The notes under the pieces are model-generated. The model had not been told where the DNA came from. It saw only the letters and a list, made by a program, of their open reading frames with translations, and did no database searches. From the IMG/VR virus record IMGVR_UViG_3300037634_004613, positions 1 to 40,743 of that record: a stretch of 40,743 nucleotides of DNA, one strand, 5' to 3'. The position numbers and the translations under genes are program-made. Positions 1 to 40,196 of this stretch are shown one piece after another; the first letter of the stretch is position 1, and each line of letters opens with the position of its first letter. This stretch comes from a virus. Its lineage: Duplodnaviria > Caudoviricetes.

Positions 1-1822
1 CATAATCCAGATCAAATGAATCTTCATCTAATGTTGTCATATTAACGGTAACCTTTACACCATCAGTTATTGAAAGTGCTTTTGCAAATCTCTTTGCAAC
101 TTCCAATGTTTCTTCTTTAGATAAGCCGTATGGTCGTCCTTTCGCTTCTCTGATTTTCTTAGATTCTTTCATGGTGTATTTCCTTTTAAAGGCTTCATTA
201 ACTGAATCCATAATGTATTTTTTACGAATCAATTTCTCAGCTTTTTCAATTTGAGCAGTATTCCAACCATATTTCTTACCAAGTTCTACTGCTACTTCAT
301 ATGGATCATCAGCTACAGTGTATGTATTCATATGAGGTTTAATAGTTGCATCAGTAGGTGGTGTTGCTTCATTAACAGATTCGTCAAGTTCAATTTCTCC
401 TTTGTGAAATTCAATTTCAGGAGAACTAAATCCTTTAAGTTTTACCATTACATAATTATCGGAAGAATCTCGTAACACAAAACCTTTCTTACCTTTAAAT
501 CTTTTAGCATCACCTTGCCGTTGAAGTTTAGTAACAATTATTTTATCTCCCTTCTTAAAAGGATTACCTTCTTTCTTTTTATTAGTTGCTTCATTAACTG
601 ATTCGCTTAAATTATTATACCATTTCATTAATTCGTCATAAGACATATCGTATGCAGGATGATCGTCAGTAGCATCAAAGGCTTTTAATTCTTTAGGCTT
701 GTCCTTCAATAAGTTTTGTAGAGCTTTATATCTATTGTCGACAGCATTTTTTGTCTTGGTTGCATTAAATAGATTGTCTTTAGGCATTTTCCATTTTACA
801 TCCCAATCTTTTTTAGTAAAGCCTTCATTAACGGATTCGGCCATTGCTTCTATATCATATTGAATTCTTTCCAATGGCGTCTCATCATTAAACACTACAT
901 TTTTCTTAACCCAATCAATTAAGCCTGGTTCATAATTAGCATTCTGTGCCATATCATATGCATTTCTCCAACCTTCATTGGATGATACATCATCAATCCA
1001 TCGGTCGTATTTCTTTTGATTCCAATTTGGCTTGTCCGCAACTACTTGCTTAGGTGCTTTCGCTTTGTAAGTATCCTTCGAAGGATCATAAACTCCTATA
1101 GGATCGCCTTTATATCCTCGCATTTGTTGTCTAAACTTCTTAAGTGCGTAATCAGCATCATCAAGAGCAGAACTATCAGAATAAGCACCATACTTCTCTC
1201 GGCCTAATTTGATTTTCATCTTTTTCTGCTTAGCCGGGTCTGTTTCAAGATGCAGATCCTGGAGCATTGCCTCTCCAGATGGTCCACCTAAAGTAAGTTC
1301 ATCGAGCGGTTCATCATCTAATGCACGGCGTTTGTCTTTCAAGGCCTTCTCTTCAGCATCTAATGCTTTTTCTCTAGCTTTTTTAACATCCTTAGTTATC
1401 TCAGATAAACTAATACCGGTAGGATCAAATCCTTCCTCGGTAGTTGGTTCTTCTTCTTCTGGCTCTTCTTCTGGTACTTCTTCATCCGGCATATCATCCC
1501 CACCTTCTTCACCTTCTTCCTCAGGAGCTTCTTCATCACCTTCCGGTGCTTCCTCAGGCTCATCTGATTTGAATTGATCTGCCATTGCTGTATTATATGT
1601 TTCTAAATCAATAATATTATCAGCAACTAATAAATGATCAATATCCTGATATGAGAATGGTTCCATTTCGCCATTCGGTTCCATACCTTGTCCTATTAGA
1701 GGATTTTCTACATCATCGGCATCAGTAATAGTTAAATACCGACTATCGACATATACTTTTAGAGGAACACCTGTAACTGCATATTGAGCAATAATAGTGT
1801 TGTCAAAGAATTTTTTGTCCAT
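1..1822 (-). CDS. Large modular protein/putative polyprotein (>607 aa, truncated by window edge): N-terminal domain, acidic linker, then small domains separated by (E/D)SVNE-[AG] linkers; candidate internal head protein
   Basis: Translated by hand from ATG at 1822 (MDKKFFDNTIIAQYAVTGVPLKVYVDSRYL...). The frame stays open to position 2 (...TLDEDSFDLDY) with no stop, so it is absent from the ORF track. ATATTTAT motif lies upstream. Confidence 0.9.
   Translation of the reverse strand, partial: MDKKFFDNTIIAQYAVTGVPLKVYVDSRYLTITDADDVENPLIGQGMEPNGEMEPFSYQDIDHLLVADNIIDLETYNTAMADQFKSDEPEEAPEGDEEAPEEEGEEGGDDMPDEEVPEEEPEEEEPTTEEGFDPTGISLSEITKDVKKAREKALDAEEKALKDKRRALDDEPLDELTLGGPSGEAMLQDLHLETDPAKQKKMKIKLGREKYGAYSDSSALDDADYALKKFRQQMRGYKGDPIGVYDPSKDTYKAKAPKQVVADKPNWNQKKYDRWIDDVSSNEGWRNAYDMAQNANYEPGLIDWVKKNVVFNDETPLERIQYDIEAMAESVNEGFTKKDWDVKWKMPKDNLFNATKTKNAVDNRYKALQNLLKDKPKELKAFDATDDHPAYDMSYDELMKWYNNLSESVNEATNKKKEGNPFKKGDKIIVTKLQRQGDAKRFKGKKGFVLRDSSDNYVMVKLKGFSSPEIEFHKGEIELDESVNEATPPTDATIKPHMNTYTVADDPYEVAVELGKKYGWNTAQIEKAEKLIRKKYIMDSVNEAFKRKYTMKESKKIREAKGRPYGLSKEETLEVAKRFAKALSITDGVKVTVNMTTLDEDSFDLDY
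194..838 (-). repeat. Four dispersed in-frame linker repeats encoding ESVNE-G, ESVNE-A, ESVNE-A, DSVNE-A
   Basis: + strand ttcattaac(g/t/a)ga(t/a)tc at 824-838, 590-604, 368-382 and 194-208, all in the frame of the 1..1822 ORF. Spacing is 78, 74 and 58 codons. Confidence 0.9.
1433..1561 (-). repeat. Low-complexity Glu/Pro/Gly-rich acidic linker (EPEEAPEGDEEAPEEEGEEGGDDMPDEEVPEEEPEEEEPTTEE)
   Basis: ttc-rich tract on + strand, translated in the frame of the 1..1822 ORF. Confidence 0.85.
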
Positions 1823-1840
1823 TAAATTATACCCTTTGTT

Positions 1841-1848
1841 ATAAATAT
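1841..1848 (-). promoter_or_regulatory. Putative phage late-promoter motif ATATTTAT
   Basis: The same octamer lies about 18-23 nt upstream of the starts at 1822, 6199 and 33010, each in a short intergenic gap. Confidence 0.55.
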
Positions 1849-1858
1849 AGGTTAAGTA

Positions 1859-2200
1859 TCATTTCCAGAAGATTTGAATGCATAATATTATAACGCATAA
1901 CATTATAGATATTGCCGTTTTCATGTTAACGCCTTCTCCCATGAAGTACCACGTGAAGATGCTCATTATAATCATTCCTGATGCAAATGAAAGCATTCTG
2001 CCTGGCCATAAGAGTCCATCGAAGTGTTCTACGGCATATCTAGTTGATAATAAAAATATGTATGCTACTATCGATCCACCGGCTACCGATAGCAATACTG
2101 GATGCTTTCTAGCCCATTCATTAAAGAATTGTGAATTAAGCTGTAACCATACCAACGCCTGGCCTACTATTAGTAAGGCCATACTAATTAATAACTTCAT
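1859..2200 (-). CDS. Small 4-TM membrane protein, DMT/EamA/SMR-like
   Basis: 113 aa with four hydrophobic segments; C-terminal FMGEGVNMKTAISIML resembles the DMT 'GE' loop; ATGA overlap with upstream gene. Confidence 0.6.
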   Translation of the reverse strand: MKLLISMALLIVGQALVWLQLNSQFFNEWARKHPVLLSVAGGSIVAYIFLLSTRYAVEHFDGLLWPGRMLSFASGMIIMSIFTWYFMGEGVNMKTAISIMLCVIILCIQIFWK

Positions 2201-2676
2201 ATAAATTTGAATTCTTTAAGAGCCGTTTCTAATACTTCGGCTGGGGTTCTATGGCCGTGGCTTCCGGTATATATCTTTGGCATTAACTCTTCTTCATTTA
2301 TAATACTAACGGTCTTATTAGGATCAATAATATTATCAGCCTCACCAAACACAAAATACATAGGAGGCTCATGCTCCCCGGGTGGTCCCACTTCTGGTTC
2401 AAACGGTCGACTATGCAATGCTGGATTAAGCATCATAGCTGGTATATTATAACGTCTACTTATTATATACGCCAGGTACCCCCCCATACTAGATCCTATT
2501 ACCAAGTCAGGTTTAAATGACTCTACGAATGTAATAACACGTTCTAACGGGTCGTTACGGTAATCAATGTATGGATTAAGTACTTCATATCCTAATGAAC
2601 GTAACCATTTCACTTTATCGCAATTAGTCTTGCTTTCTAATCCATGCAAATAAGCTATCTTCATCATCTCTCTCAT
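2197..2676 (-). CDS. YqiA/YcfP-like (UPF0227) alpha/beta hydrolase (esterase)
   Basis: YLHGLES oxyanion motif, GSSMGG nucleophile elbow, LNPAL, Asp (DNII) and His (GHR). Confidence 0.85.
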   Translation of the reverse strand: MREMMKIAYLHGLESKTNCDKVKWLRSLGYEVLNPYIDYRNDPLERVITFVESFKPDLVIGSSMGGYLAYIISRRYNIPAMMLNPALHSRPFEPEVGPPGEHEPPMYFVFGEADNIIDPNKTVSIINEEELMPKIYTGSHGHRTPAEVLETALKEFKFI

Positions 2677-2686
2677 CTTTTACAAT

Positions 2687-2718
2687 TAAAGATAAGGAAT
2701 TTAATTCAATAAACCAAA
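2687..2718 (-). promoter_or_regulatory. Bacteroidota sigma70-like promoter TTTG-N20-TATCTTTA
   Basis: Minus strand TTTG gtttattgaattaaattcct TATCTTTA; one mismatch to the -33 TTTG/-7 TAnnTTTG consensus, with canonical spacing. Confidence 0.65.
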
Positions 2719-2724
2719 TGTAAT

Positions 2725-3288
2725 TTACAGATTACCGACTAGAATTTTTGTAACAGGAGTGCCGCCAATCTTACGTGTATACCAACCATCGCCTGGCTTA
2801 GCGCCTTTTGGATGTGCCCCATGCCATTCAATATCTTTCTTCAAGACCTTGCGTACGGTAGCCTCATCATCTATGGTAGGTACTCCACCTCTCTTATGAA
2901 ATGAATCGAAAGCCGATCCTGATAGCTCTACATAATGGCCTGGTAGCTTTAATTCTTTGGTCTTTTGTATTAATAGATTTTTAATTTTCGCATGCGTGCC
3001 GTCGTGCCCGATACCAGTATGCTTTACTCCTAATGGTGTTTTCTTACCAAAATATGTAACATCAATTTCTGGATCGCCATCTATATCAGCTACCTTCCAA
3101 TAACTTAGATCTGGATCTGTGATATCATCTGGTGATTTAATTTTTAGATGGCCTCCTATAGGAGCATATGCATTCTGAATCAAATCAAAAAGAACTTGCT
3201 TGATATCCTCGAGGTCATCACGTGATGGTGCTACATACTTACCTTTCGGTAATTCTAATTCTGATAAAAGATCTTTAAGTTTAATCAT
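2725..3288 (-). CDS. MIKLKDLLSE-leader protein, hypothetical; paralog of 4595..5131
   Basis: Shared 10-aa leader; collinear similarity to 4595..5131 (DIDGDPEID/DVDEDPMPD, GHDG/ATDG, GVPTIDD/GAPVIMD, DGWYTR/DGYYER). Confidence 0.85.
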   Translation of the reverse strand: MIKLKDLLSELELPKGKYVAPSRDDLEDIKQVLFDLIQNAYAPIGGHLKIKSPDDITDPDLSYWKVADIDGDPEIDVTYFGKKTPLGVKHTGIGHDGTHAKIKNLLIQKTKELKLPGHYVELSGSAFDSFHKRGGVPTIDDEATVRKVLKKDIEWHGAHPKGAKPGDGWYTRKIGGTPVTKILVGNL

Positions 3289-3632
3289 TTTCTAAAAAAG
3301 TAATGTATGTCTTGATCTATATTGTAAATAAAAAACAGGCCGGATTGTTTAGGCGTCATTTCTATTCCTTTACTATCTTGTGCAATATAATGATATGTAT
3401 GATTGCCTTTAATATGTTTTTGTTTAACTTTATTGGCCGGAAACCATTTATGAAATTCTTGTTTTGATAGTTCTTTACTTTGTCCTTCATCTCCCTCATC
3501 AGGGTTTCCTACGTATCTAGACATATCTGATGCATTTGGAAATAGATTACAAATTTCTTTTCCACTTTCTCCACCTACATCAACACAACTGCCGATATAT
3601 CTTTCTGGTAATATGTCTTTTAATTTAATCAT
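3285..3632 (-). CDS. MIKLKDILPE-leader protein, hypothetical
   Basis: 115 aa ORF with shared leader and ATGA overlaps on both sides. Confidence 0.8.
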   Translation of the reverse strand: MIKLKDILPERYIGSCVDVGGESGKEICNLFPNASDMSRYVGNPDEGDEGQSKELSKQEFHKWFPANKVKQKHIKGNHTYHYIAQDSKGIEMTPKQSGLFFIYNIDQDIHYFFRK

Positions 3633-4159
3633 TCGGCCAATTCCGTTTCAATATCTAAATCTGGATACTTTTGTTTGAGCGTATCTACCGCGGCTATATT
3701 CTTTGGAGAATCATCTATAAAGAAAATACTATTATATCCTTTCTTGATATGTGCCTCAATCCATTTTGCTTTTTTCATTGGATCGGAAGAACCTACACCA
3801 ACCACATAAGGACTAATACCTACTTGATTCTTAAAGAAATGACGTAATGGAAATGCTAATCCTCTAGCAGTTAATACTGTTACCTTTGTTTGTGGATTAC
3901 CTAATTCTGCCTTAAGGCGCTTAACATTATCATCTATTGTTCGTGGATTCTTTAGTTTGCTATTGAAATCTCGGAAATCAAATTTATCTCCTGGCTCTTC
4001 TTCGTATACGGCATACTCGGCCGGATCTAATTTAATCTCTTCACCATTTGTTTTGGTAACATAAATATATGCTTCTGATTTGGCTAGTGTATCGTCAAAA
4101 TCAAATACAGCTAATCGCTTACCTTGGAATTCATTTAACAATTCTGCTAATCTAATCAT
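3629..4159 (-). CDS. MIRLAELLNE-leader HAD-superfamily phosphatase (PNKP/Swiss-army-knife RNA-repair HAD-like)
   Basis: HAD motif I VFDFDDTL, motif II VLTAR, motif III K (KKAKWI), motif IV FIDDSPKN. Confidence 0.8.
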   Translation of the reverse strand: MIRLAELLNEFQGKRLAVFDFDDTLAKSEAYIYVTKTNGEEIKLDPAEYAVYEEEPGDKFDFRDFNSKLKNPRTIDDNVKRLKAELGNPQTKVTVLTARGLAFPLRHFFKNQVGISPYVVGVGSSDPMKKAKWIEAHIKKGYNSIFFIDDSPKNIAAVDTLKQKYPDLDIETELAE

Positions 4160-4598
4160 TTTGTATATGCCTTTTTGCCTTTAATAAATATTCTCGACTT
4201 ATTGGTACATCTTCTTTACCTATCTCAGCATCATCCGTTGGTATATTTTCATCTACAGTATCGCCAGACATTTCCCATGGTCCCCAATGTCTTTCTCTTA
4301 ACATCATTACGCATGCCTCTGTCGAAGTATACTTAATACAATCTTCTTCATTAATATTTCCAATGGCATAATATACGATCTTTTGTATCTTTAACTTTTT
4401 ACCATTGGAATAATCTAATACATTATCACCATCTTCCACCCATGCATGGCCAAATCTCTTACCAGATAGCTCTCCTTGGCCGGCAGGCATTCCGTGGACT
4501 AATATATAATCTTCATTATCCATCGCTAATTTACCAGCAGCTACATAACAGTCGCCAAGCTCTTTAAATTCACACAATAAGGCTGTTAATCTAATCAT
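4152..4598 (-). CDS. MIRLTALLCE-leader protein with transglutaminase/papain-like Cys-His-Asp triad
   Basis: GDCYVAA...LVHG...GHAWVED...VLDYS pattern. Confidence 0.65.
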   Translation of the reverse strand: MIRLTALLCEFKELGDCYVAAGKLAMDNEDYILVHGMPAGQGELSGKRFGHAWVEDGDNVLDYSNGKKLKIQKIVYYAIGNINEEDCIKYTSTEACVMMLRERHWGPWEMSGDTVDENIPTDDAEIGKEDVPISREYLLKAKRHIQND

Positions 4599-5131
4599 TT
4601 GCCATACATCCTTTTGACAACCATGCCACCTTTCTTAAGGTCTCTTTCATAATATCCATCTTCAAGATGCTTTATGAATTTTGGTCCAACCATTTTTTCT
4701 AATCGAGGCTGGTCCATAATAACCGGAGCTCCTTTAGCGATCATAATGTCATTCATCTTTTTGGATGCTTCTAAAGTATAGCCTTCTGACTTAACCATAT
4801 CAACAACTTTTTGTACTACGGCCTTTTTAGCTTCTCTGCCTCCATCTGTTGCTAATAATTTGATACGTCCTTTTCTTACCAATATAAATGCATCTGGCAT
4901 TGGATCTTCGTCCACATCAATTAGCATTACTATTTCATAGCTGGATTGCAGTTCTGATGCCGAAAAGGCAGATAATTGAAGTCCTTCTGCATTATAAACT
5001 GTTTTATACATCCGAAACAGCTCTTCCATAATAGATGGGTCTATGGTAGTGAGATCTTGCTTAATCCATTCTTTCTTAGGATGGTTATCTAAATCATAAT
5101 CTTCACGTAATATATCTGCTAGTTTAATCAT
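4595..5131 (-). CDS. MIKLADILRE-leader protein, hypothetical; paralog of 2725..3288
   Basis: Shared leader; collinear similarity to 2725..3288. Confidence 0.85.
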   Translation of the reverse strand: MIKLADILREDYDLDNHPKKEWIKQDLTTIDPSIMEELFRMYKTVYNAEGLQLSAFSASELQSSYEIVMLIDVDEDPMPDAFILVRKGRIKLLATDGGREAKKAVVQKVVDMVKSEGYTLEASKKMNDIMIAKGAPVIMDQPRLEKMVGPKFIKHLEDGYYERDLKKGGMVVKRMYGK

Positions 5132-5591
5132 TATTTATTTGAAAATGATCCGGAAGGTGTTTTTTAAAATAACTTAAATCATCCTTATCAAAACCCAATC
5201 TTTGTTGATTACTTGTATTTAAATATACACCTTTACCTCCACTTTCCTTGCCTGTATAAGTCCAATATCCTTTAGCAACAACTGTATCTTTATATCTTAT
5301 GTTTTTATCTACTTCGAAACTTGGATATGATGCTGCTTCATTAATAAACTCTTCAATCGGCTCCGGCGGATGTTCTGCTGTTTCCTCATTATTACCTTCA
5401 AGGTCTTTTCCTTCTTCTGCCCACATCTTCGCTTCTTCCTCGGTATCATAACTACTTCGCCAGCCATACTCTGGAGATCGTGCATACCAGGTATCTGATA
5501 TTGCGCCTTTCCAATAATCGCCTGGTTTCTTTCTTGTATCTAGCAATGTACCTGGTACAAATTCTTTTATTAAATCTTTTAGTTTGATCAT
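5124..5591 (-). CDS. MIKLKDLIKE-leader two-domain protein with internal EEFINE-A linker
   Basis: Shared leader; acidic linker ending PIEEFINE-A separates two ~70-aa segments. Confidence 0.8.
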   Translation of the reverse strand: MIKLKDLIKEFVPGTLLDTRKKPGDYWKGAISDTWYARSPEYGWRSSYDTEEEAKMWAEEGKDLEGNNEETAEHPPEPIEEFINEAASYPSFEVDKNIRYKDTVVAKGYWTYTGKESGGKGVYLNTSNQQRLGFDKDDLSYFKKHLPDHFQINND

Positions 5592-6199
5592 TATATTATA
5601 TCCTGTATATCCTGGCTGTCGAGTAATGTATATGTAAATGAATTACCCCAAACGTCTTCAGCTTGTTTTGCTACCCACATTAGTTTATTAAAATCTTCGT
5701 AATTGGCTATCACCTGGCAACCTGCACTCCATTTATCTATTTGAGTTGACGTACCTGTTGATGATGCTCTATGAATATTAATCCCATAAATACCTTCCTG
5801 AATATTGTCTGGTTGCATATCATAACAATTATCTTTATTATCATCACGATATACTTGTAATGGTTTCATCTGCTTTAGAGCTTCATATTTACCTTGGTGC
5901 ATGCCAATTGAATAAGCACCTCGATATTGGTTTGGAACTAAAATAGCTACACCATCTGGGTTCAATAGATTCTCTGTATAGTATTTACCTGGATCTGTTG
6001 TGCAATTCCATTGGTGGTATTGTAAATCATTACCTACTTTGTATGATACCGTAAGTAGATCGTCAAATTTGTTAGTTACCTCATCAAATGTATCTGAATT
6101 TCTGATACCGACAATATTAAGATTGTAGTTACCATTCTCAAACCATTTATATCCTTTAGCCTTAACAGCTGCTTCTACTTGTTCTCGGGTAAATTCCAT
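5591..6199 (-). CDS. Putative peptidoglycan-active enzyme, L,D-transpeptidase (YkuD)-like His/Cys catalytic motif; candidate lysin
   Basis: NLNIVGIRN, TTDPG, GINIHRA...KWSAGCQV matches an HxnSxGC pattern; AGGAG RBS upstream. Confidence 0.6.
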   Translation of the reverse strand: MEFTREQVEAAVKAKGYKWFENGNYNLNIVGIRNSDTFDEVTNKFDDLLTVSYKVGNDLQYHQWNCTTDPGKYYTENLLNPDGVAILVPNQYRGAYSIGMHQGKYEALKQMKPLQVYRDDNKDNCYDMQPDNIQEGIYGINIHRASSTGTSTQIDKWSAGCQVIANYEDFNKLMWVAKQAEDVWGNSFTYTLLDSQDIQDII

Positions 6200-6216
6200 A
6201 CAAACTCCTATTTGAA

Positions 6217-6224
6217 ATAAATAT
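6217..6224 (-). promoter_or_regulatory. Putative late-promoter motif ATATTTAT heading the lysin-like/leader-protein operon
   Basis: Minus strand cttcATATTTATttcaaataGGAGtttgtATG. Confidence 0.55.
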
Positions 6225-6228
6225 GAAG

Positions 6229-6438
6229 CTAATCCTTTTTAAAGAAGTTTTTTAACTCATCTGGCGACGCATACCGTAAACCGGTTTGGCAAATGTTACA
6301 GTACCATTTTACTTCACTTCGATTTTGTTTGAGACTTGTATCGGCGTGGGTGCAATTTGACTGGATGTCTTTAAGCTCATTTTCAATAGTTTGTTTATCA
6401 GAAACAAGCTTCTTGACTCGATGTTTATCTGAATCCAT
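6229..6438 (-). CDS. Small coiled-coil plus Zn-ribbon-like protein
   Basis: CTH...CNIC; related GTATTTAT motif at 6446-6453 upstream. Confidence 0.65.
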   Translation of the reverse strand: MDSDKHRVKKLVSDKQTIENELKDIQSNCTHADTSLKQNRSEVKWYCNICQTGLRYASPDELKNFFKKD

Positions 6439-6462
6439 TACGCAGATAAATACCGGTCTAAC

Positions 6463-6549
6463 TCACATAAACAGTAATCCAATTGTAATTAAAGCAAGGC
6501 CTACTACTGATATCCACCAGAATATATTCAACCAATAATACCGCTTCAT
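6463..6549 (-). CDS. Small single-TM peptide (MKRYYWLNIFWWISVVGLALITIGLLFM); likely true start is 6549 rather than 6699
   Basis: Hydrophobic 28-aa ORF; the upstream part of the tracked ORF overlaps a better-coupled ORF at 6596..6724. Confidence 0.45.
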   Translation of the reverse strand: MKRYYWLNIFWWISVVGLALITIGLLFM

Positions 6550-6595
6550 GTGTAGTGTTATTAACACAACCAATGCCCCTAGATCACTAGTTACT

Positions 6596-6724
6596 TTATT
6601 GACCTGGCTTTTTATCTGAGCTATAATAGTCCGTATCACTTTTTTTTGGTTTTTTTCTTTTAATTTTTTGTTTTGCTGGCTTTTCATCAATATAATCATC
6701 TAAATCTTGTACTCGAATTTTCAT
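6596..6724 (-). CDS. Small Lys-rich protein (MKIRVQDLDDYIDEKPAKQKIKRKKPKKSDTDYYSSDKKPGQ)
   Basis: 42-aa ORF translated by hand; ATGA overlap with the stop of 6721..6969. Confidence 0.55.
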   Translation of the reverse strand: MKIRVQDLDDYIDEKPAKQKIKRKKPKKSDTDYYSSDKKPGQ

Positions 6725-6969
6725 TCTGGTATCCTTACTTTAAGCTTGTCAATACGAGTTAAAAACCCTTCGATAGTATGAGATTTATTTCCTGCGTCTT
6801 TGATTGTAACATGAGGGAGCATATCCGGTCTCTTATCAACCATATTCATTAAGGCCTTTAATCCGGACCCTGCCCAGAATACACCAAACCCATTATCCTC
6901 ACCTAAGGTGTTTGTATCTTTGAAACAATCTTCTGCCGATTCTCCTGGCAACATTATGTAAAATATCAT
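6721..6969 (-). CDS. Hypothetical protein
   Basis: 82 aa with ATGA coupling to both neighbours. Confidence 0.7.
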   Translation of the reverse strand: MIFYIMLPGESAEDCFKDTNTLGEDNGFGVFWAGSGLKALMNMVDKRPDMLPHVTIKDAGNKSHTIEGFLTRIDKLKVRIPE

Positions 6970-8252
6970 TTTCTTACTATTAAGTCTCGTTCATAACTCT
7001 CAATATTAAATATCGAGATCTTAAGGTTACCTAACTCAAATTCTCCTAATTCTCCCGTATCTTGTATAATATCTGCAAGTTGCTGTATATTACCAAAGTC
7101 TGGTTCTGTGAAAGTAGTACCATCTATCTCAACTAATATATCATTATTCATTTCATTGTCATAAGGTACTATTCTTTCTGATAGATCAAATAAAGTATTC
7201 TCCTGCTCCTTTTCCACATAATCCCAAGCTCTGCCTATAGTAAAGGTTTCTTGTGTATAAATAGTATCACACCATGGCTCTAATAATTCTAGCAACTGCA
7301 GATTACCGTTTTTCAACTTGATACCTATATTATATTTAGGTGATATGATTGGTTTCATATATTGGTCATGCTTAATAGTAGTGCCCCATTTACGAATGAA
7401 GTTTCTCATATTAACAGTAGTAGTATGCAACCATTCTGGAGAATCCTTGCCTGGAGCTCCACCTGAGGCTGGATTAAATCTACTACCTCGGCTAGTCATA
7501 TGATATACAAATCCTTCCCAGGTCTGAATGAACTTAACTCCATTTAATTGAAATCGATTAAAGATATCCGAATCTTCTTTTGACTGTGGTGCGAATAATT
7601 TATCATGACCACCTATCTCTTGGAAGTCTTTTTTCCAAAATGCCCAAGGTGCAAATATACCTTCTGTTTGAGGTTGCATATTTTGCTGATTAACATCATA
7701 AAACCTTTCATGGATATACTCCCTAAATCCTGTATTATGATACCAATCTAATAATTCTCTTTCTTTAAACTCTTCCGGCTCGACTCCAAAATCTTTCAAC
7801 AATTTCTCAGGGCCTGGTGGATGTAGTGGTGGTTCAATTCTAGTAAGTGATACTATTGTTTTTTCTCTAGGTATAATTTCTGTTGCTCCATATAAATCTT
7901 TTTGATTAGGAATAAATGCATACATTTGTCTTTCAATAGCATCTAAAGCACCAGGACATAAATACATATCAGCATGATAAATCATACAAATATCATGCTT
8001 AGCTACTTCATCGACCAATCTATCATTTAATATAACTAATCCTTGCCTTTCTGGACCTTCGTTTCTGATTGCTTGAAACTGCGAATCCGTTTCCATTGTC
8101 TCCTGGCACCATTCCCAAGTTTCATCTGTAGATGCGTCATCTGCAACACATATCTGTACATCATGGATTCCTTGATTCCTTCTAATAGAATCATATGCCC
8201 ATTTAAGATATTTGAAATTATTGCGTGACGGTATTATGAAGCTTATTTTCAT
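6966..8252 (-). CDS. GT2-family glycosyltransferase with C-terminal extension
   Basis: ISFIIPSRN, VADDASTDET, HADM (DxD-like), GGHD...EDSD. Confidence 0.9.
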   Translation of the reverse strand: MKISFIIPSRNNFKYLKWAYDSIRRNQGIHDVQICVADDASTDETWEWCQETMETDSQFQAIRNEGPERQGLVILNDRLVDEVAKHDICMIYHADMYLCPGALDAIERQMYAFIPNQKDLYGATEIIPREKTIVSLTRIEPPLHPPGPEKLLKDFGVEPEEFKERELLDWYHNTGFREYIHERFYDVNQQNMQPQTEGIFAPWAFWKKDFQEIGGHDKLFAPQSKEDSDIFNRFQLNGVKFIQTWEGFVYHMTSRGSRFNPASGGAPGKDSPEWLHTTTVNMRNFIRKWGTTIKHDQYMKPIISPKYNIGIKLKNGNLQLLELLEPWCDTIYTQETFTIGRAWDYVEKEQENTLFDLSERIVPYDNEMNNDILVEIDGTTFTEPDFGNIQQLADIIQDTGELGEFELGNLKISIFNIESYERDLIVRK

Positions 8253-11679: not shown

Positions 11680-12412
11680 ACAAATACTTATAAGTTTTTT
11701 CTATCCAATAAGGAACCACTTCTTCTTTTTTACCTGGAATTCCATTAAAATGCATTACATAACCCATTCTTGTATGTAACATATCGTCTCCTATAATTTC
11801 TCTTTTGACCATACCTCCCATGTTATACTTCCATGGCAATAATTTTAGATCTATGTTATGATGACGTATCATATAATTTAATGGAGTTTGATCTGTACCA
11901 GTACCGTAATTATTTTGTATGGTTTGTATAATTTGTTGATTATTAAAATAAAAATCTGTCATGGATTTGAAAAATTCTTTATGTTTTTTATTAACAATCT
12001 GAAATCCTGCATTACCATAAGTCCAAAAATCAAACCATTCATTTTTGAAAACATATTTTTTATAATGTTCCATCCCCCTCAATATCCAATCATAACTACC
12101 GGTATCATGTACCATACAATATTTATGTTCTGTCTCATTAAAGAAGTTAGGACAATTTGGATGGACGATTGTATCTGCATCCACCATTAATATCTGATCA
12201 TAATCAATTTCATTAGCTTCCAACATATCAAACAAAAAATAGCGTTGCCATATAATATTCATTTGATTAATACCTACTACTGGTTCTTCCATTAACAATA
12301 ATTCTGCATCATATTTGTCACAAAAATGTTTCCAAGAATTAATTGAATATTGGTATTCTTTCTTTAATTGGCCATCTTTTTTGAACGCCACCATAAAAAC
12401 TATATTTTTCAT
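11669..12412 (-). CDS. GT-A glycosyltransferase (GT8/GT34-like)
   Basis: MVDADT (DxD), NAGFQIVN, DQTPLN, HFNG. Confidence 0.8.
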   Translation of the reverse strand: MKNIVFMVAFKKDGQLKKEYQYSINSWKHFCDKYDAELLLMEEPVVGINQMNIIWQRYFLFDMLEANEIDYDQILMVDADTIVHPNCPNFFNETEHKYCMVHDTGSYDWILRGMEHYKKYVFKNEWFDFWTYGNAGFQIVNKKHKEFFKSMTDFYFNNQQIIQTIQNNYGTGTDQTPLNYMIRHHNIDLKLLPWKYNMGGMVKREIIGDDMLHTRMGYVMHFNGIPGKKEEVVPYWIEKTYKYLYEN

Positions 12413-18741: not shown

Positions 18742-19552
18742 TATATTCCTTCCAGTAATTATAACAACTTAATAAATCTTGGTTTGTCTTTACTTGGTCA
18801 CCAGATAATATTATTTGCCATGCTTTATAGTTTTCTAATTCACTTGGCGTTCCAAATACTGTAACAAAATCAGTATCATATATACCAACCTTTAAATTAT
18901 CTTGTATCAATAAATTATATACCAATGTTACATAATATTCTCCATTAGAATGCTTTATTTCTTTATCTATCGTTTCTTGAAAATATTTTTTTATGTATGA
19001 ACCTTTTCGAAAATAATATGTACCTGTTGATGCATGTTCTGTCCAATGATTATCTGTATATGGCTCTTTTTCTTTAATTTCTATCATTTGATCACCATCC
19101 ATTTTACAGTATGCCATATATGTAGATGCTAATCTATGTGGGTGAAATCCAGTATGAGTTAATACACATCCATCTACTTTAGTTTTATCTACCCATTGTT
19201 TAAACTTATCGTAATCCCATAAATAAGGATTATCGCAATAACATACAATAACTGGCTCATTGTCATCGATTAAATCCATATATGGAATTACCGTAAATAC
19301 TGGACCGCGGTTATGTTCTGGAACTGAAACTACTTTTGATTTTTTATGCAATCTATGTAATCTATCATGCATATCTGTTTCTCTTAAATGACGTTCATTG
19401 CAAATAAAAATAATTTCATCATCTTTATCAAACATATCTACTATCTTACTAATGATATAATCACCATCAACCCATATAAATGGTTTAGGATTTTTATATC
19501 CTTTATCAACAAACCGCTGTCCTAATCCAGCCATTGGTATTATAATTTTCAT
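18719..19552 (-). CDS. Sugar-phosphate nucleotidyltransferase, paralog of 17260..17967
   Basis: IPMAGLGQRF...PKPF, YCD, STGTYYF, GEYYV, FGTPSEL. Confidence 0.85.
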   Translation of the reverse strand: MKIIIPMAGLGQRFVDKGYKNPKPFIWVDGDYIISKIVDMFDKDDEIIFICNERHLRETDMHDRLHRLHKKSKVVSVPEHNRGPVFTVIPYMDLIDDNEPVIVCYCDNPYLWDYDKFKQWVDKTKVDGCVLTHTGFHPHRLASTYMAYCKMDGDQMIEIKEKEPYTDNHWTEHASTGTYYFRKGSYIKKYFQETIDKEIKHSNGEYYVTLVYNLLIQDNLKVGIYDTDFVTVFGTPSELENYKAWQIILSGDQVKTNQDLLSCYNYWKEYNEISRSK

Positions 19553-20952
19553 TTACTTTTCCTTAATTGTTCAAATTCTAATTTTTCAATTTCATTTAAC
19601 TTATCAATTGATAACGTATTTAAATCATATTGTAACTTAATACTATTATAATAAGTTTTCATTTTTACATACCATGGATCATTTGAATCACGAAATATAT
19701 ATTCATCAGGAGTTAAAAACCCTTTTGTCATTTGCGTTGATTTTTGTAATTTAAATGATTTTGCAATTTTAATAACTTCATCATGTAAATTTAATACCTT
19801 ATCATAATCATTGCTATTGATAATAATCCCATGATTTTGTAAAAAGTATATATCATATGTATGAGAGTTAGATCGTATAAATTCGAAAAGTGCTAGACCA
19901 GGTTTTAGTACTGGAACTATACAATAATCGTATTTATTATATAATAAATCAATAGTTGTTTCAAAAGTTTTACTACAGAGTATAGGCATTAATATATCTG
20001 GATGTGTATGTAATACGTATTTTTTTAAAATACTATGCATTCCTGATTCCATTGATGGAACTCCTTTATTTTGTACGGATGCATTTAATATATTAAAATA
20101 TTTTCGTTCATCCAAATCTTTTATAAAAGAAATATAATCTAAAAAATATTCATTATCTAAATTACACCAGCCAGTAAAATAATCTACATTAGATAAACAT
20201 GTACCACTACTCTTAATAAACATATGTGATTTAAATTTTACACTAACATTGCCAGCTGGTCCTTGTACTATATCACTAGAGCTCACAGAATTTGATAACA
20301 AAACTAAGCTTGATATGTGATCAAAATATTCTAATAACTGATCTAAAATATTATCAAATAAATACTTTGACGATTTTTTATCTACAATTAATTTTACTTG
20401 TCCATTAATTTTACTAAATTTTAAAATTAAATCAGCATACTCACGTTGATTCTCTATAAAATGTGAATCAGATTTACGACGATTTATAGATTCTATAACT
20501 TGATTTTCTGTCTTCCCGCGTTGTGTAGTATCACGTGCTATTTTCCATAATTTAGTTAATTCATCATCAGTATCTACATAAATTTTAAAATCAGATATAT
20601 ATTTCATTTTATCACTATAAAATGCATGCAATCCTTCGTTAATGATAAATGGCTTAGGTGTTATCAATTTAGGAGCGTCAAACTCGCCAGTATCATGATT
20701 GTATACAGATCTATATATAGATTTATTATCCTTCAATTGAGAAATATGAAAATCTCCCAATTCAATGTTATTTGCATCTGGATGAAAATGAGTGATAGTA
20801 TTCCAAGCGATATGATTTCGTACATACTTATGCAGATCATCAGTGCTAAATAAAACCGATCTATCAGTACCTATACAATAACGTATTAAGTTAGCTATTG
20901 TAGTTTTACCAACACCTGATTTTCCTGATATACTAATTACAACTGGTTTCAT
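19549..20952 (-). CDS. Fusion: phosphoribulokinase/uridine-kinase-family P-loop kinase plus class II aldolase/epimerase domain
   Basis: SGKSGVGKTT, TDDLHKY, YNHDTGEF, EGLH, WKIARD; C-half GNVSVK, IKSSG, PSMESGMH, VLHTHP, LQNHG. Confidence 0.82.
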   Translation of the reverse strand: MKPVVISISGKSGVGKTTIANLIRYCIGTDRSVLFSTDDLHKYVRNHIAWNTITHFHPDANNIELGDFHISQLKDNKSIYRSVYNHDTGEFDAPKLITPKPFIINEGLHAFYSDKMKYISDFKIYVDTDDELTKLWKIARDTTQRGKTENQVIESINRRKSDSHFIENQREYADLILKFSKINGQVKLIVDKKSSKYLFDNILDQLLEYFDHISSLVLLSNSVSSSDIVQGPAGNVSVKFKSHMFIKSSGTCLSNVDYFTGWCNLDNEYFLDYISFIKDLDERKYFNILNASVQNKGVPSMESGMHSILKKYVLHTHPDILMPILCSKTFETTIDLLYNKYDYCIVPVLKPGLALFEFIRSNSHTYDIYFLQNHGIIINSNDYDKVLNLHDEVIKIAKSFKLQKSTQMTKGFLTPDEYIFRDSNDPWYVKMKTYYNSIKLQYDLNTLSIDKLNEIEKLEFEQLRKSK

Positions 20953-37811: not shown

Positions 37812-37842
37812 ATAATATATAAAATTTTTACTAAATATCAAA
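37812..37842 (-). promoter_or_regulatory. Promoter-like TTTG-N19-TATATTAT
   Basis: Minus strand TTTG atatttagtaaaaatttta TATATTAT agttATG. Confidence 0.6.
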
Positions 37843-39018
37843 AAACTTACTGAAAGTTTCATTATTTGCCATTGTTAATGTTTGGCCACCATATTTGTTA
37901 TACAATCCTACATGTTTTTCATATACCATATATGGATCATCTGATTCGAACATTTCTTCCATGCTCTTTAATACTAGATAAAAATCACGTGGTAATACCT
38001 TTTCTAGTAACTCGTCATGTGCATTTACCAATTCTTTAATCTGCTTAACTGTTTCAGTATATACAAACAAATTATTCATTGTCATTTTATTATATACATT
38101 CGCATCATATTTAGCAACTTCATCAAAAGTAAATCCTTCATATACCGGATGACCTAATGGATTAGGCACTGCCGTTCCTGGTATATATGGAAGGTTTTCT
38201 CCTTTTGGAAAGTATAAATCAGTAAAGGTCATTTTACTCAATTGAGCCGAATGAAGTGAAGTTCCATACACTGGATATAATCCTGGTGATGAAGAATCTG
38301 TCGATATTTGGATTCTACCTCCATAATGCTTATTCATCATCTTTTGGAAATATGCTAATAAGAAGAAATCAGATATTTTGGAGATTCCTAATACGTGTAT
38401 GAACTTGTTTTGCTTTTTTTCAAATTCTCTATGCTTAAGTAATGGAGCTAATCCACTCATAAACATTGATACTCTTTTCTGAGCACCACCAATACACCAA
38501 CCGTTGAAATCAAAGTCTCTGACTCGGTTATACCAAGTTTCATATTCTGCAATACTATTACCTTGTATTACATTTAAGAATTGAGTTTTACCTGATTGGT
38601 TCTCTGCGAAATATTTAAAATTCTCATATGAGATATCTAAACATTCTCTAAACTTACCTTCATACTTAATACGCGGCGGTATATCCAGGTTAACGGCAAT
38701 ATCCGAATTGGCCTCCAGCCAATGGAATATCTTCTCTTTGATCTCTGGCGACCATTTAATAGCCCCTGTAACCAATTGGAATCCTCCGGAATCACCTATA
38801 ACCTGGACGTCATCACCACAACCATACTTCTGCCTGGCTTCCATATCTTTATAATGGTGACCGGCAGTAATTAGGAAGTATGGATGTCTCCATCGCTCTG
38901 GAAATGACTTGTCGTAGAATCTAGCAGTTAAGCCAGGCTTAACCTCTTTATTCTTTTTCAGAGCATCTGCACTACCACCTGCTGATAATGAGGGGTAGTA
39001 TATTAATTCTTTACTCAT
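37831..39018 (-). CDS. TGT-fold guanine transglycosylase, DpdA-like (7-deazaguanine DNA modification candidate)
   Basis: DSGGFQ, LDIPP, NVIQG, GWCIGG, IHVLG, STDSSS; no TGT Zn-binding CxCxxC seen; probable start 39018 (ATGA overlap). Confidence 0.78.
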   Translation of the reverse strand: MSKELIYYPSLSAGGSADALKKNKEVKPGLTARFYDKSFPERWRHPYFLITAGHHYKDMEARQKYGCGDDVQVIGDSGGFQLVTGAIKWSPEIKEKIFHWLEANSDIAVNLDIPPRIKYEGKFRECLDISYENFKYFAENQSGKTQFLNVIQGNSIAEYETWYNRVRDFDFNGWCIGGAQKRVSMFMSGLAPLLKHREFEKKQNKFIHVLGISKISDFFLLAYFQKMMNKHYGGRIQISTDSSSPGLYPVYGTSLHSAQLSKMTFTDLYFPKGENLPYIPGTAVPNPLGHPVYEGFTFDEVAKYDANVYNKMTMNNLFVYTETVKQIKELVNAHDELLEKVLPRDFYLVLKSMEEMFESDDPYMVYEKHVGLYNKYGGQTLTMANNETFSKFFDI

Positions 39019-40196
39019 ACATTTATTCCTTTTCTTGTTAGTAGATGCTTGCATAATTCTTTTTCATGCCAAACATTTAATTCATAATCAATTCCGCTTG
39101 AAACGATCATTGCCTCGGCCAATATACCAACATCACATGCTTCTGCAATACCATGCTCCGGTCTCTTTGTTTTAATAGCATTATTCAATACTTTTAAAGC
39201 ACTATCAACTTTAAATGGAGTATATCTTCTACTAGCCTCAACCGTTTCTTTAAATGATCTAAAATCAGGATATACTAAATCAGTATCAAATACATCACCT
39301 TCAACTGCTGTAAATGCTACATAATCTTGTAATGCAGTATTGAATTGTATTTCTGAAGTCCTAAGTTTGTCATAATATTCCTGCTTGGTAATTCCTTCAT
39401 AGATTTTAAACCTTGGCTCGGCCTTTGCTAACTCTCGCAACGCTTCCACGGTACCTGGCATCATACTTCTAATTTCTTTACCTGAGGTAGTTATATGCCA
39501 TTCCCATTTTGGATTTGCATCTAGGAATTGCTCCGCCACTTCCATCATAAAGAATGGATTCTTTTCTTTATCAAATCTTGAAGTATAAACTACTACATTA
39601 TCCTTAAAGGTCTTTTGAATATTGCCAGCGGTATTCCGAACTGATTCTGAATGAACTGGTAATCCTAATACATGAATAGGTGCAGTAAACCCTGCTTCTC
39701 TCAATTGGTCTCTATGAATTGTACTTGCTACAAATATGCCAGCTAGATATTTATCAAATCCTAACTCGTAATAACGCATCCATTCTCTCATTGGAAACGT
39801 GAAATCATATTCGTCAACCGATTGAGCCCAGCACCTTGTATAAACCTTTACATTTTTATATCCATACAAGTCCCAAGCATAAAATAATGCTTCAACTCCA
39901 GGATGCCACATATCTTGAATATATACAACATCGCCATCTTGGAAATCATCAGACCGGATAGCTTCAAGTAATCGTGTTACTTGGCTCATTGCAAATACTC
40001 CACGACCTACTGCATCTAATACAGCACCGACTTTAATTTCCTGATCAGGATCATAATCGCCAGGCACAGATATAAAATCTACATCATCCTTAAATTGATT
40101 AAATGCCGCTGGCATCCAATCTTCTGTCAATTGACCTGTATACCTTGCTTTAAGAGGTTCAAGGCCTAAATACCATACTTTTTTCTTTTTTGTCAT
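39015..40196 (-). CDS. GT-B (GT4-like) glycosyltransferase coupled to the TGT-like gene
   Basis: SRFDKEKNP, YYDKL, FNTALQDYV...EG, YPDFRSF; probable start MTKKKK at 40196. Confidence 0.75.
   Translation of the reverse strand: MTKKKKVWYLGLEPLKARYTGQLTEDWMPAAFNQFKDDVDFISVPGDYDPDQEIKVGAVLDAVGRGVFAMSQVTRLLEAIRSDDFQDGDVVYIQDMWHPGVEALFYAWDLYGYKNVKVYTRCWAQSVDEYDFTFPMREWMRYYELGFDKYLAGIFVASTIHRDQLREAGFTAPIHVLGLPVHSESVRNTAGNIQKTFKDNVVVYTSRFDKEKNPFFMMEVAEQFLDANPKWEWHITTSGKEIRSMMPGTVEALRELAKAEPRFKIYEGITKQEYYDKLRTSEIQFNTALQDYVAFTAVEGDVFDTDLVYPDFRSFKETVEASRRYTPFKVDSALKVLNNAIKTKRPEHGIAEACDVGILAEAMIVSSGIDYELNVWHEKELCKHLLTRKGINV

Follow-up and report, generated by a model that had tools for sequence, protein, structure and literature searches.

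Six consecutive genes of a tailed-phage genome fragment (IMG/VR virus record IMGVR_UViG_3300037634_004613, a stretch of 40,743 bases with 32% G+C and nearly all genes on the minus strand, here called the window) open with a common ten-residue leader, M-I-[KR]-L-x-x-[LI]-[LI]-x-E, which probably serves as a tag for head loading and for cutting by a prohead protease, in the manner of the capsid-targeting sequence (CTS) of phage T4. The six genes are coupled, overlapping and all on the minus strand, at positions 2725-5591: MIKLKDLIKE (5562..5591) starts a 155-residue gene (5124-5591), followed in order by MIKLADILRE (5102-5131; gene 4595-5131, cargo 2), MIRLTALLCE (4569-4598; gene 4152-4598, cargo 3), MIRLAELLNE (4130-4159; gene 3629-4159, cargo 4), MIKLKDILPE (3603-3632; gene 3285-3632, cargo 5) and MIKLKDLLSE (3259-3288; gene 2725-3288, cargo 6). 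A sequence-only reading of the window had described six consecutive genes with such a leader, Glu at position 10 and L/I at position 8, and all reading frames and leaders are as it gave them.

The leader core is confined to this array. In the six frames of the 40.7 kb, [KR]-L-x-x-[LIVM]-[LIVM]-x-E matches six times, each time as residues 3-10 of an array gene, and the core stands at residues 4-10 in 6/54 window genes compared with 11 such matches at 12,349 internal positions (P ~1e-11 by a binomial test, a rough value because the motif was chosen post hoc); none of the other 48 coupled genes of the window has it. Starts with M-I (12/54 window genes) and with M-I or M-K (35/54) are common, the former partly due to ATGA/ATGATTAA gene overlaps, so the informative part of the leader is L4, [LI]7, [LI]8 and E10. 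It might be argued that the six genes begin alike because of a signal for translation initiation or gene overlap, which recombination among the leaders has spread and which has no function as a peptide, given the frequency of M-I and M-K starts, the overlap of all six genes with their neighbors, a microhomology at L-N-E codons and the existence of leaderless orthologues. This is nevertheless very improbable: synonymous codons vary in the leaders as they do in the bodies (the codon use of 165 leaders matches that of their bodies, and the peptide is therefore what is kept), the core survives internally without Met in diverged sequences, E10 is invariant across differing leader types (59/59, see below), and the remaining 48 coupled genes do without the leader. 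The initiation bias that the sequence-only reading had itself raised as an alternative thus fails for residues 4-10. Chance motif, DNA-level repeat and pure initiation bias were rejected as origins of the leader, and so was a signal peptide, as inspection revealed no hydrophobic stretch.

The T4 CTS has the sequence MKTYQEFIAE (PMC8442874). Mutagenesis showed that its residues 4 and 7 govern targeting and residues 8 and 10 processing, and gp21 cleaves after L/I-X-E (PMC9026906). All six window leaders have the corresponding features, i.e., about ten residues, hydrophobic positions 4 and 7, L/I8 and E10. As with the CTS of IPI, IPII, IPIII and Alt, which is cut by gp21, there are ten residues with hydrophobic positions 4, 7 and 8, Glu10 and an L/I-x-E end, the leader is conserved on divergent bodies encoded in a tandem, variable locus, and relatives of the window phage possess a gp21-family protease together with a gp23-type capsid protein. 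The two differ in that the window leaders have aliphatic L4 and L/I7 in place of Y4/F7, that the cargo consists of folded enzymes (GNAT, HAD, papain-like) of neutral or acidic character instead of small basic proteins, that the window group has many more cargo genes and several leader classes per genome, and that it chains modules into polyproteins at the same joint; moreover, it is a distant lineage that probably infects Bacteroidota. To our knowledge, T4's three internal proteins carry the only well-tested short head-loading tag. Divergent cargo of T4-type internal proteins has already been described (PMC3012670), and the CTS has been proposed in a review as the means by which T4-like phages load various proteins (PMC9026906). 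The system had been put forward as an undescribed kind; it is instead best read as a variant of the T4 CTS/internal-protein system, in which the leader would work like the CTS, while the cargo would not belong to the T4 internal-protein families. Homology of the cargo bodies to those of the T4 proteins was rejected, considering their isoelectric points (pI 4.8-8.0), their GNAT, HAD and papain-like folds, and the lack of any PHROG match from the six bodies to T4 internal-protein families at E 0.1. In the literature within reach, which excluded subscription papers and supplements, no description of the leader or of protease-jointed cargo polyproteins was found.

The leader behaves as a module with a fixed boundary. 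An alignment of the GNAT family to which cargo 2 and cargo 6 belong (59 rows: 49 of the 120 listed homologues, with long fusions and fragments left out, both window paralogues and eight loci) shows L4 in 55/59, I/L7 in 59/59, L/I8 in 58/59 and E10 in 59/59 rows, with variable positions 5 and 9, and in distant members the same Glu closes leaders of other types. In four relatives with bodies 83-99% identical (L272, L274, L275, L283), the array has been remodelled: cargo 3 and cargo 5 are gone, and cargo 2, 4 and 6 have other modules fused in front of their bodies, which start at D11, F11 and L11 after E-P-I-E-E, S-S-L-N-E and Y-K-L-S-D-I-L-S-E, respectively. Among fifteen longer cargo-6 homologues, which represent about four fusion lineages and not 15 events, the end of [LIVM]-x-E coincides with the joint in 8/15 cases and lies within one residue of it in 12/15 (by eye; background rate 0.007 per residue), and seven of them keep the full leader core internally without Met. 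In a small sample, 173 leader proteins fell into 86 body clusters. These arrangements are best read as the work of a common [ILV]-x-E joint, which would let phages swap, chain and drop cargo modules, either as separate genes or within polyproteins.

The polyprotein next to the array (2..1822, minus strand), which runs off the window, points in the same direction. Its description as VNE-linked proved accurate, with S-V-N-E joints at residues 333, 411, 485 and 543. Its start lacks a leader of the array type; in the near-identical L281 it comprises 1056 residues, and module sets differ in other strains. Homologues of these modules turn up in 425 proteins of the library, of which 150 were listed. 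In 20/21 homologues, [LIVM]-x-E stands before module 334-408, and this module occurs directly behind leaders of the MIKL-, MKKSEL- and MKYIKTFEEFINE-type, while the joint pattern of module 187-328 is less clear (11/76 within the position window used). Elsewhere, polyprotein modules follow either an aliphatic leader or a T4-like K-[TS]-[FY]-x-E-F-[ILV]-N-E leader: among the 116 homologue N-termini that do not begin with the polyprotein's own first module, a T4-like [FY]-x-x-[FY]-[ILVA]-x-E leader is present on 22, compared with 0/342 controls, and an aliphatic one on 14, compared with 9/342 controls. The N-terminal domain of the polyprotein had no match in viral contigs. Between the array and the polyprotein (1859-2676) lie two leaderless genes, one for an alpha/beta hydrolase (UPF0227) and one for a small membrane protein; the hydrolase is also next to cargo 6 in phage pT24 and in L001 and L004, and it forms the start of polyprotein P0202.

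Head machinery of the T4 type is found in relatives. G001, G003 and G004 carry immuto-type protease, scaffold and capsid genes, and the clamp loader of G003 and G004 is 60-62% identical to that of the window; protease and capsid of the relatives belong to PF03420 and PF07068 (Gp23). A gp21-family protease is also present in G006 and G008 (two of five genomes examined, and the one complete genome). Protease, scaffold and gp23-type capsid genes, whose co-occurrence with the leader the sequence-only reading had suggested as a check, were seen together in G001, G003, G004, G006 and G008. The portal of one cargo-6-bearing relative is closest to that of Flavobacterium phage immuto (57%), followed by phage Mel-JY01 (52%), and a Bacteroidota host can only be inferred. 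Phage immuto itself has starts of the leader type, such as MISIYNILKE and MRLLELLRE. A loose form of the core opens 57/85 major capsid proteins (e.g., MDLNNLLNE) and 11/54 scaffolds, and none of 54 portals, 65 neck proteins and 51 PhoH proteins. The intervals from protease to scaffold contain a leader gene in 20/54 cases, the share depending on how the interval was found (via the leader pattern 12/13, via the capsid 8/39, isolates 0/2). The complete 145-kb G008 has the strict leader on 7/185 open reading frames, six of them clustered with a cargo-2 orthologue and one just after the protease, and on none of 49 replication and sugar genes, 55 small early-like genes and 39 tail genes.

These same observations could be taken to mean that the leader loads the prohead, but that the cargo is core or filler material which aids assembly and is shredded or retained, so that nothing functional is injected. 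The leader core indeed resembles capsid and scaffold N-termini, the gene that precedes the protease ends in a similar way (ISLKDIL-type ends in five listed cases), a conserved leader gene sits between protease and scaffold, four bodies combine internal [LIV]-x-E sites with acidic pI, and T4 IPIII itself influences head assembly (PMC9026906). However, the bodies are compact enzymes with conserved residues of catalytic type, cargo 5 and cargo 6 are free of internal sites, and the array is hypervariable among strains while core genes are not, which makes a mere filler role rather unlikely. A structure prediction in which a leader-bearing N-terminus of 32 residues was paired with the scaffold dimer of a relative (score 0.01, mark 0.32) bears neither way.

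The leader is widespread: one exact form was estimated to occur in ~1100 stored viral stretches. Pfam matches were obtained for 26/92 leader proteins scanned and include ART-PolyVal, PRTase, NUDIX, zeta-type kinases, RimK, wall hydrolases and OmpA. In other lineages, long gene runs with other common leaders occur in L009 (79-9842), L008 (9674-16903), L294 (4090-10516) and L295 (6760-13237); their leaders are of the MKITKRQLRRIIKEE-type (~20 in L009), the MNxLREYIRELLxE-type, the MKHIKLFEEF-type and the MKKSELRxIIKEE-type. In L141 (11675-12139 and 25626-26867), L184 and L187, a leader class that contains R-M-Q-K-L-A-G-I-I reproduces the conserved C-terminus of the scaffold protein, and L186 (2600-5517) and L197 contain a tandem pair of major capsid protein genes.

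The cargo run is probably expressed late. A TATTTAT[AT] motif at 6217..6224 (minus strand), a likely late promoter, lies upstream of the run, which begins with a leaderless putative endolysin gene (5591..6199, minus strand; phrog_33083 E 2e-15, phrog_3000 E 5e-39), and a TATTTATA motif, likewise a probable late promoter, precedes the polyprotein (1841..1848, minus strand). In reverse complement, TATTTATA corresponds to the consensus of T4 late promoters; in the orientation seen here it precedes structural genes across the group, L141 included. TATTTAT[AT] was found upstream of the portal in 35/56, neck in 51/61, tube in 8/10 and lysin genes in 7/10 cases, compared with 1/48 replication and sugar genes. 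Across the window, ATATTTAT is not enriched (16 seen vs. 18.7 expected) and is remarkable by position only. One RNA run (0.06 share over window 1-7000) contained only short, divergent contig pieces and was uninformative.

The bodies behind the leaders are diverse. The earlier statement that similarity ends after the leader holds for most of them and fails for the two paralogues, cargo 2 and cargo 6, which are 27% identical and share invariant columns; the proposed list of bodies agrees with the HAD protein, the Cys-His protein and the paralogues, which are of predicted GNAT fold, and needs amending for the 155-residue gene. The latter, cargo 1 (5124..5591, minus strand), comprises two modules of unassigned function joined at I-E-E-F-I-N-E (residues 79-85, ~5337-5357). 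Its first module has other partners in the four remodelled relatives, and its second recurs within other proteins after acidic/[LMV]-x-E joints; one of these proteins has a short match to gp072, a small gene in the head operon of phage immuto. Cargo 6 (2725..3288, minus strand) was modelled with a pLDDT of 92.6; the fold begins at residue 14-16, and the leader forms a low-confidence helix outside it (residues 1-8 with pLDDT <50). All 50 rows from Foldseek and VIA-align are GNAT-type (RimI: Z 10.6, rmsd 3.5, 133 aligned), and G94-H-D-G97 before the central helix is at least 90% conserved in the family. By predicted fold, cargo 6 and cargo 2 (4595..5131, minus strand) are thus members of the GNAT superfamily, the fold of cargo 2 being deduced from the cargo 6 model. 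In the ESM Atlas, cargo 6 matched only unnamed clusters at 0.91, and among isolated phages only pT24, plus a 735-kb uncultured phage.

Cargo 3 (4152..4598, minus strand) is a putative papain/transglutaminase-like Cys-His protein with C17, H35, H51 and D62 each at least 90% conserved in 36 sequences, of which C17, H51 and D62 may form a Cys-His-acid triad; its fold matches are weak (best Z 5.7, mostly papain-clan enzymes; Pfam Transglut_core3 E 0.06), and Foldseek gave no match at E 0.001. Cargo 4 (3629..4159, minus strand) is a HAD phosphatase with DFDDT, LTAR and FIDD motifs, i.e., the DxD of motif I, the Thr of motif II and an acidic motif IV; it matches phrog_415 (E 1e-8) and, below the cut-off, HAD-IIIC (E 5e-4), and gave no match in a PDB sequence search. 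Neither cargo 4 nor the polyprotein had a match among isolated phages. Cargo 5 (3285..3632, minus strand) has a 105-residue body of no recognised family, without a match in Pfam, PHROG, NCBIfam, PADLOC or the ESM Atlas. Apart from the HAD protein and weak rows, the six bodies and the polyprotein yielded nothing in PADLOC, NCBIfam, Pfam and PHROG.

In the proposed mechanism, the cargo proteins would be made late in infection, the leader would dock them via residues 4 and 7 on the scaffold core while the head is being built, and cleavage after L/I-x-E10 would be carried out by the prohead protease of the gp21 family. The freed bodies (two GNAT proteins, HAD phosphatase, papain-like protein and small modules) would then stay in the head, and the mature bodies would likely enter the host along with the DNA. 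The sequences themselves show the motif, the pattern of its conservation, its modular use and the head machinery of relatives. Docking, cutting and packaging are what we infer from the match to the T4 CTS positions, the boundary at E10, a core that is kept even where it has no start codon, the exchange of the leader for T4-like ones, the gp21-family protease of relatives and the late-gene motif upstream; to this extent, the idea of an address label is supported. Alternatively, the L-x-x-L-L helix might be a cytoplasmic late docking or degradation tag recognized by a phage or host factor, such as a chaperonin, a protease adaptor or the lysis machinery. An isolated amphipathic helix is predicted for residues 4-10, and the run is coupled to the putative endolysin, but a tag of this kind leaves the invariant terminal Glu, the ten-residue register and the interchange with T4-like leaders unexplained and appears quite improbable.

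Several observations weigh against loading and cutting in the T4 manner. One insertion is flanked by an 8-base repeat across the L-N-E codons, and some joints may thus be recombination scars. Leaderless orthologues exist for the HAD protein (3/15, at least two changes on the tree) and for the Cys-His protein (L088, L028, several of P0148-P0157 and gp61 of mycobacteriophage Barnyard). The mature bodies are not basic like the T4 internal proteins, and four of the six hold further [LIV]-x-E sites that could possibly be cut. The window has no head genes within its 40.7 kb, and G002, the most syntenic long relative, gave no match in the head-gene search; G006 and G008 have the protease yet no clamp-loader match, and are thus not near kin in replication genes. 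The loose core is also found on 6/12 primase and 4/41 terminase N-termini, one leader-bearing protein is a DNA-polymerase-type exonuclease, and leader clusters may be remote from the head operon (~70 kb away in G008). Within operons, genes lack the promoter motif anyway (major capsid protein 0/82), which weakens the argument from late motifs. Finally, no virion proteomics or cleavage data were found for the group, although subscription papers and supplements might hold some.

The least supported step is ejection with a role in host takeover or anti-defence, which is suggested by domain classes only; an effector role after ejection is perhaps half as probable as loading and cutting. N-terminal packaging signals on ejected proteins are known from the propeptides of giant-phage head ejection proteins (SPN3US gp53/gp54, phiKZ) and the signal of P1 DarB; N-termini are identical on diverged paralogues, and cutting occurs after Glu in SPN3US (PMC5694885, PMC9024508). 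The giant-phage propeptides differ in being mostly >100 residues long (PMC5694885), and for the P1 Dar proteins the published account gives no common consensus (PMC9024508). Polyvalent proteins (Iyer et al., 2017, PMC5512222) likewise combine mixed domains (GNAT, ART, PRTase, peptidases), and their delivery along with the DNA is predicted; both GNAT and ART domains have been reported in them (PMC5512222), and the domain classes seen behind the leader have also been described there (PMC5512222, PMC7824862). An ART-PolyVal domain was found behind the leader in the Pfam scan, whereas the window GNATs are likened to polyvalent GNAT families by domain class only. The polyprotein next to the array is modular, yet its modules have no family match in Pfam or PHROG. 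Furthermore, the window cargo consists mostly of separate tagged genes or of modules joined at prohead-protease-type sites, while polyvalent proteins are processed by their own zincin (PMC5512222).

Other features of the window are ~26 kb of consecutive glycosyltransferase, NDP-sugar and methyltransferase genes (6966-33010; GT2, GT61, TylF, methyltransferase 24), which include a kinase-aldolase fusion (19549-20952), and a gene with a weak TGT match (37831-39054; PF01702, E 9e-4), which may encode a base-exchange enzyme for DNA modification. A preprint on 7-deazaguanine mentions phage immuto.

If the leader works as that of T4 does, it marks in one step those hypothetical proteins that are packaged and delivered before any phage gene expression, and the tag could be used to spot proteins injected by an abundant group of uncultured phages. 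It would then also point to protease-matured polyproteins in tailed phages. It is possible, though somewhat doubtful, that a large aquatic T4-type lineage runs a plug-and-play injection system, in which leaders that mimic capsid and scaffold, together with a universal [ILV]-x-E joint, would load dozens of exchangeable enzymes (acetyltransferases, phosphatases, ADP-ribosyltransferases and peptidases, single or as protease-matured polyproteins) as a fast-evolving arsenal for anti-defence and takeover. The leader sequence would then give access to hundreds of so far unknown effector families.

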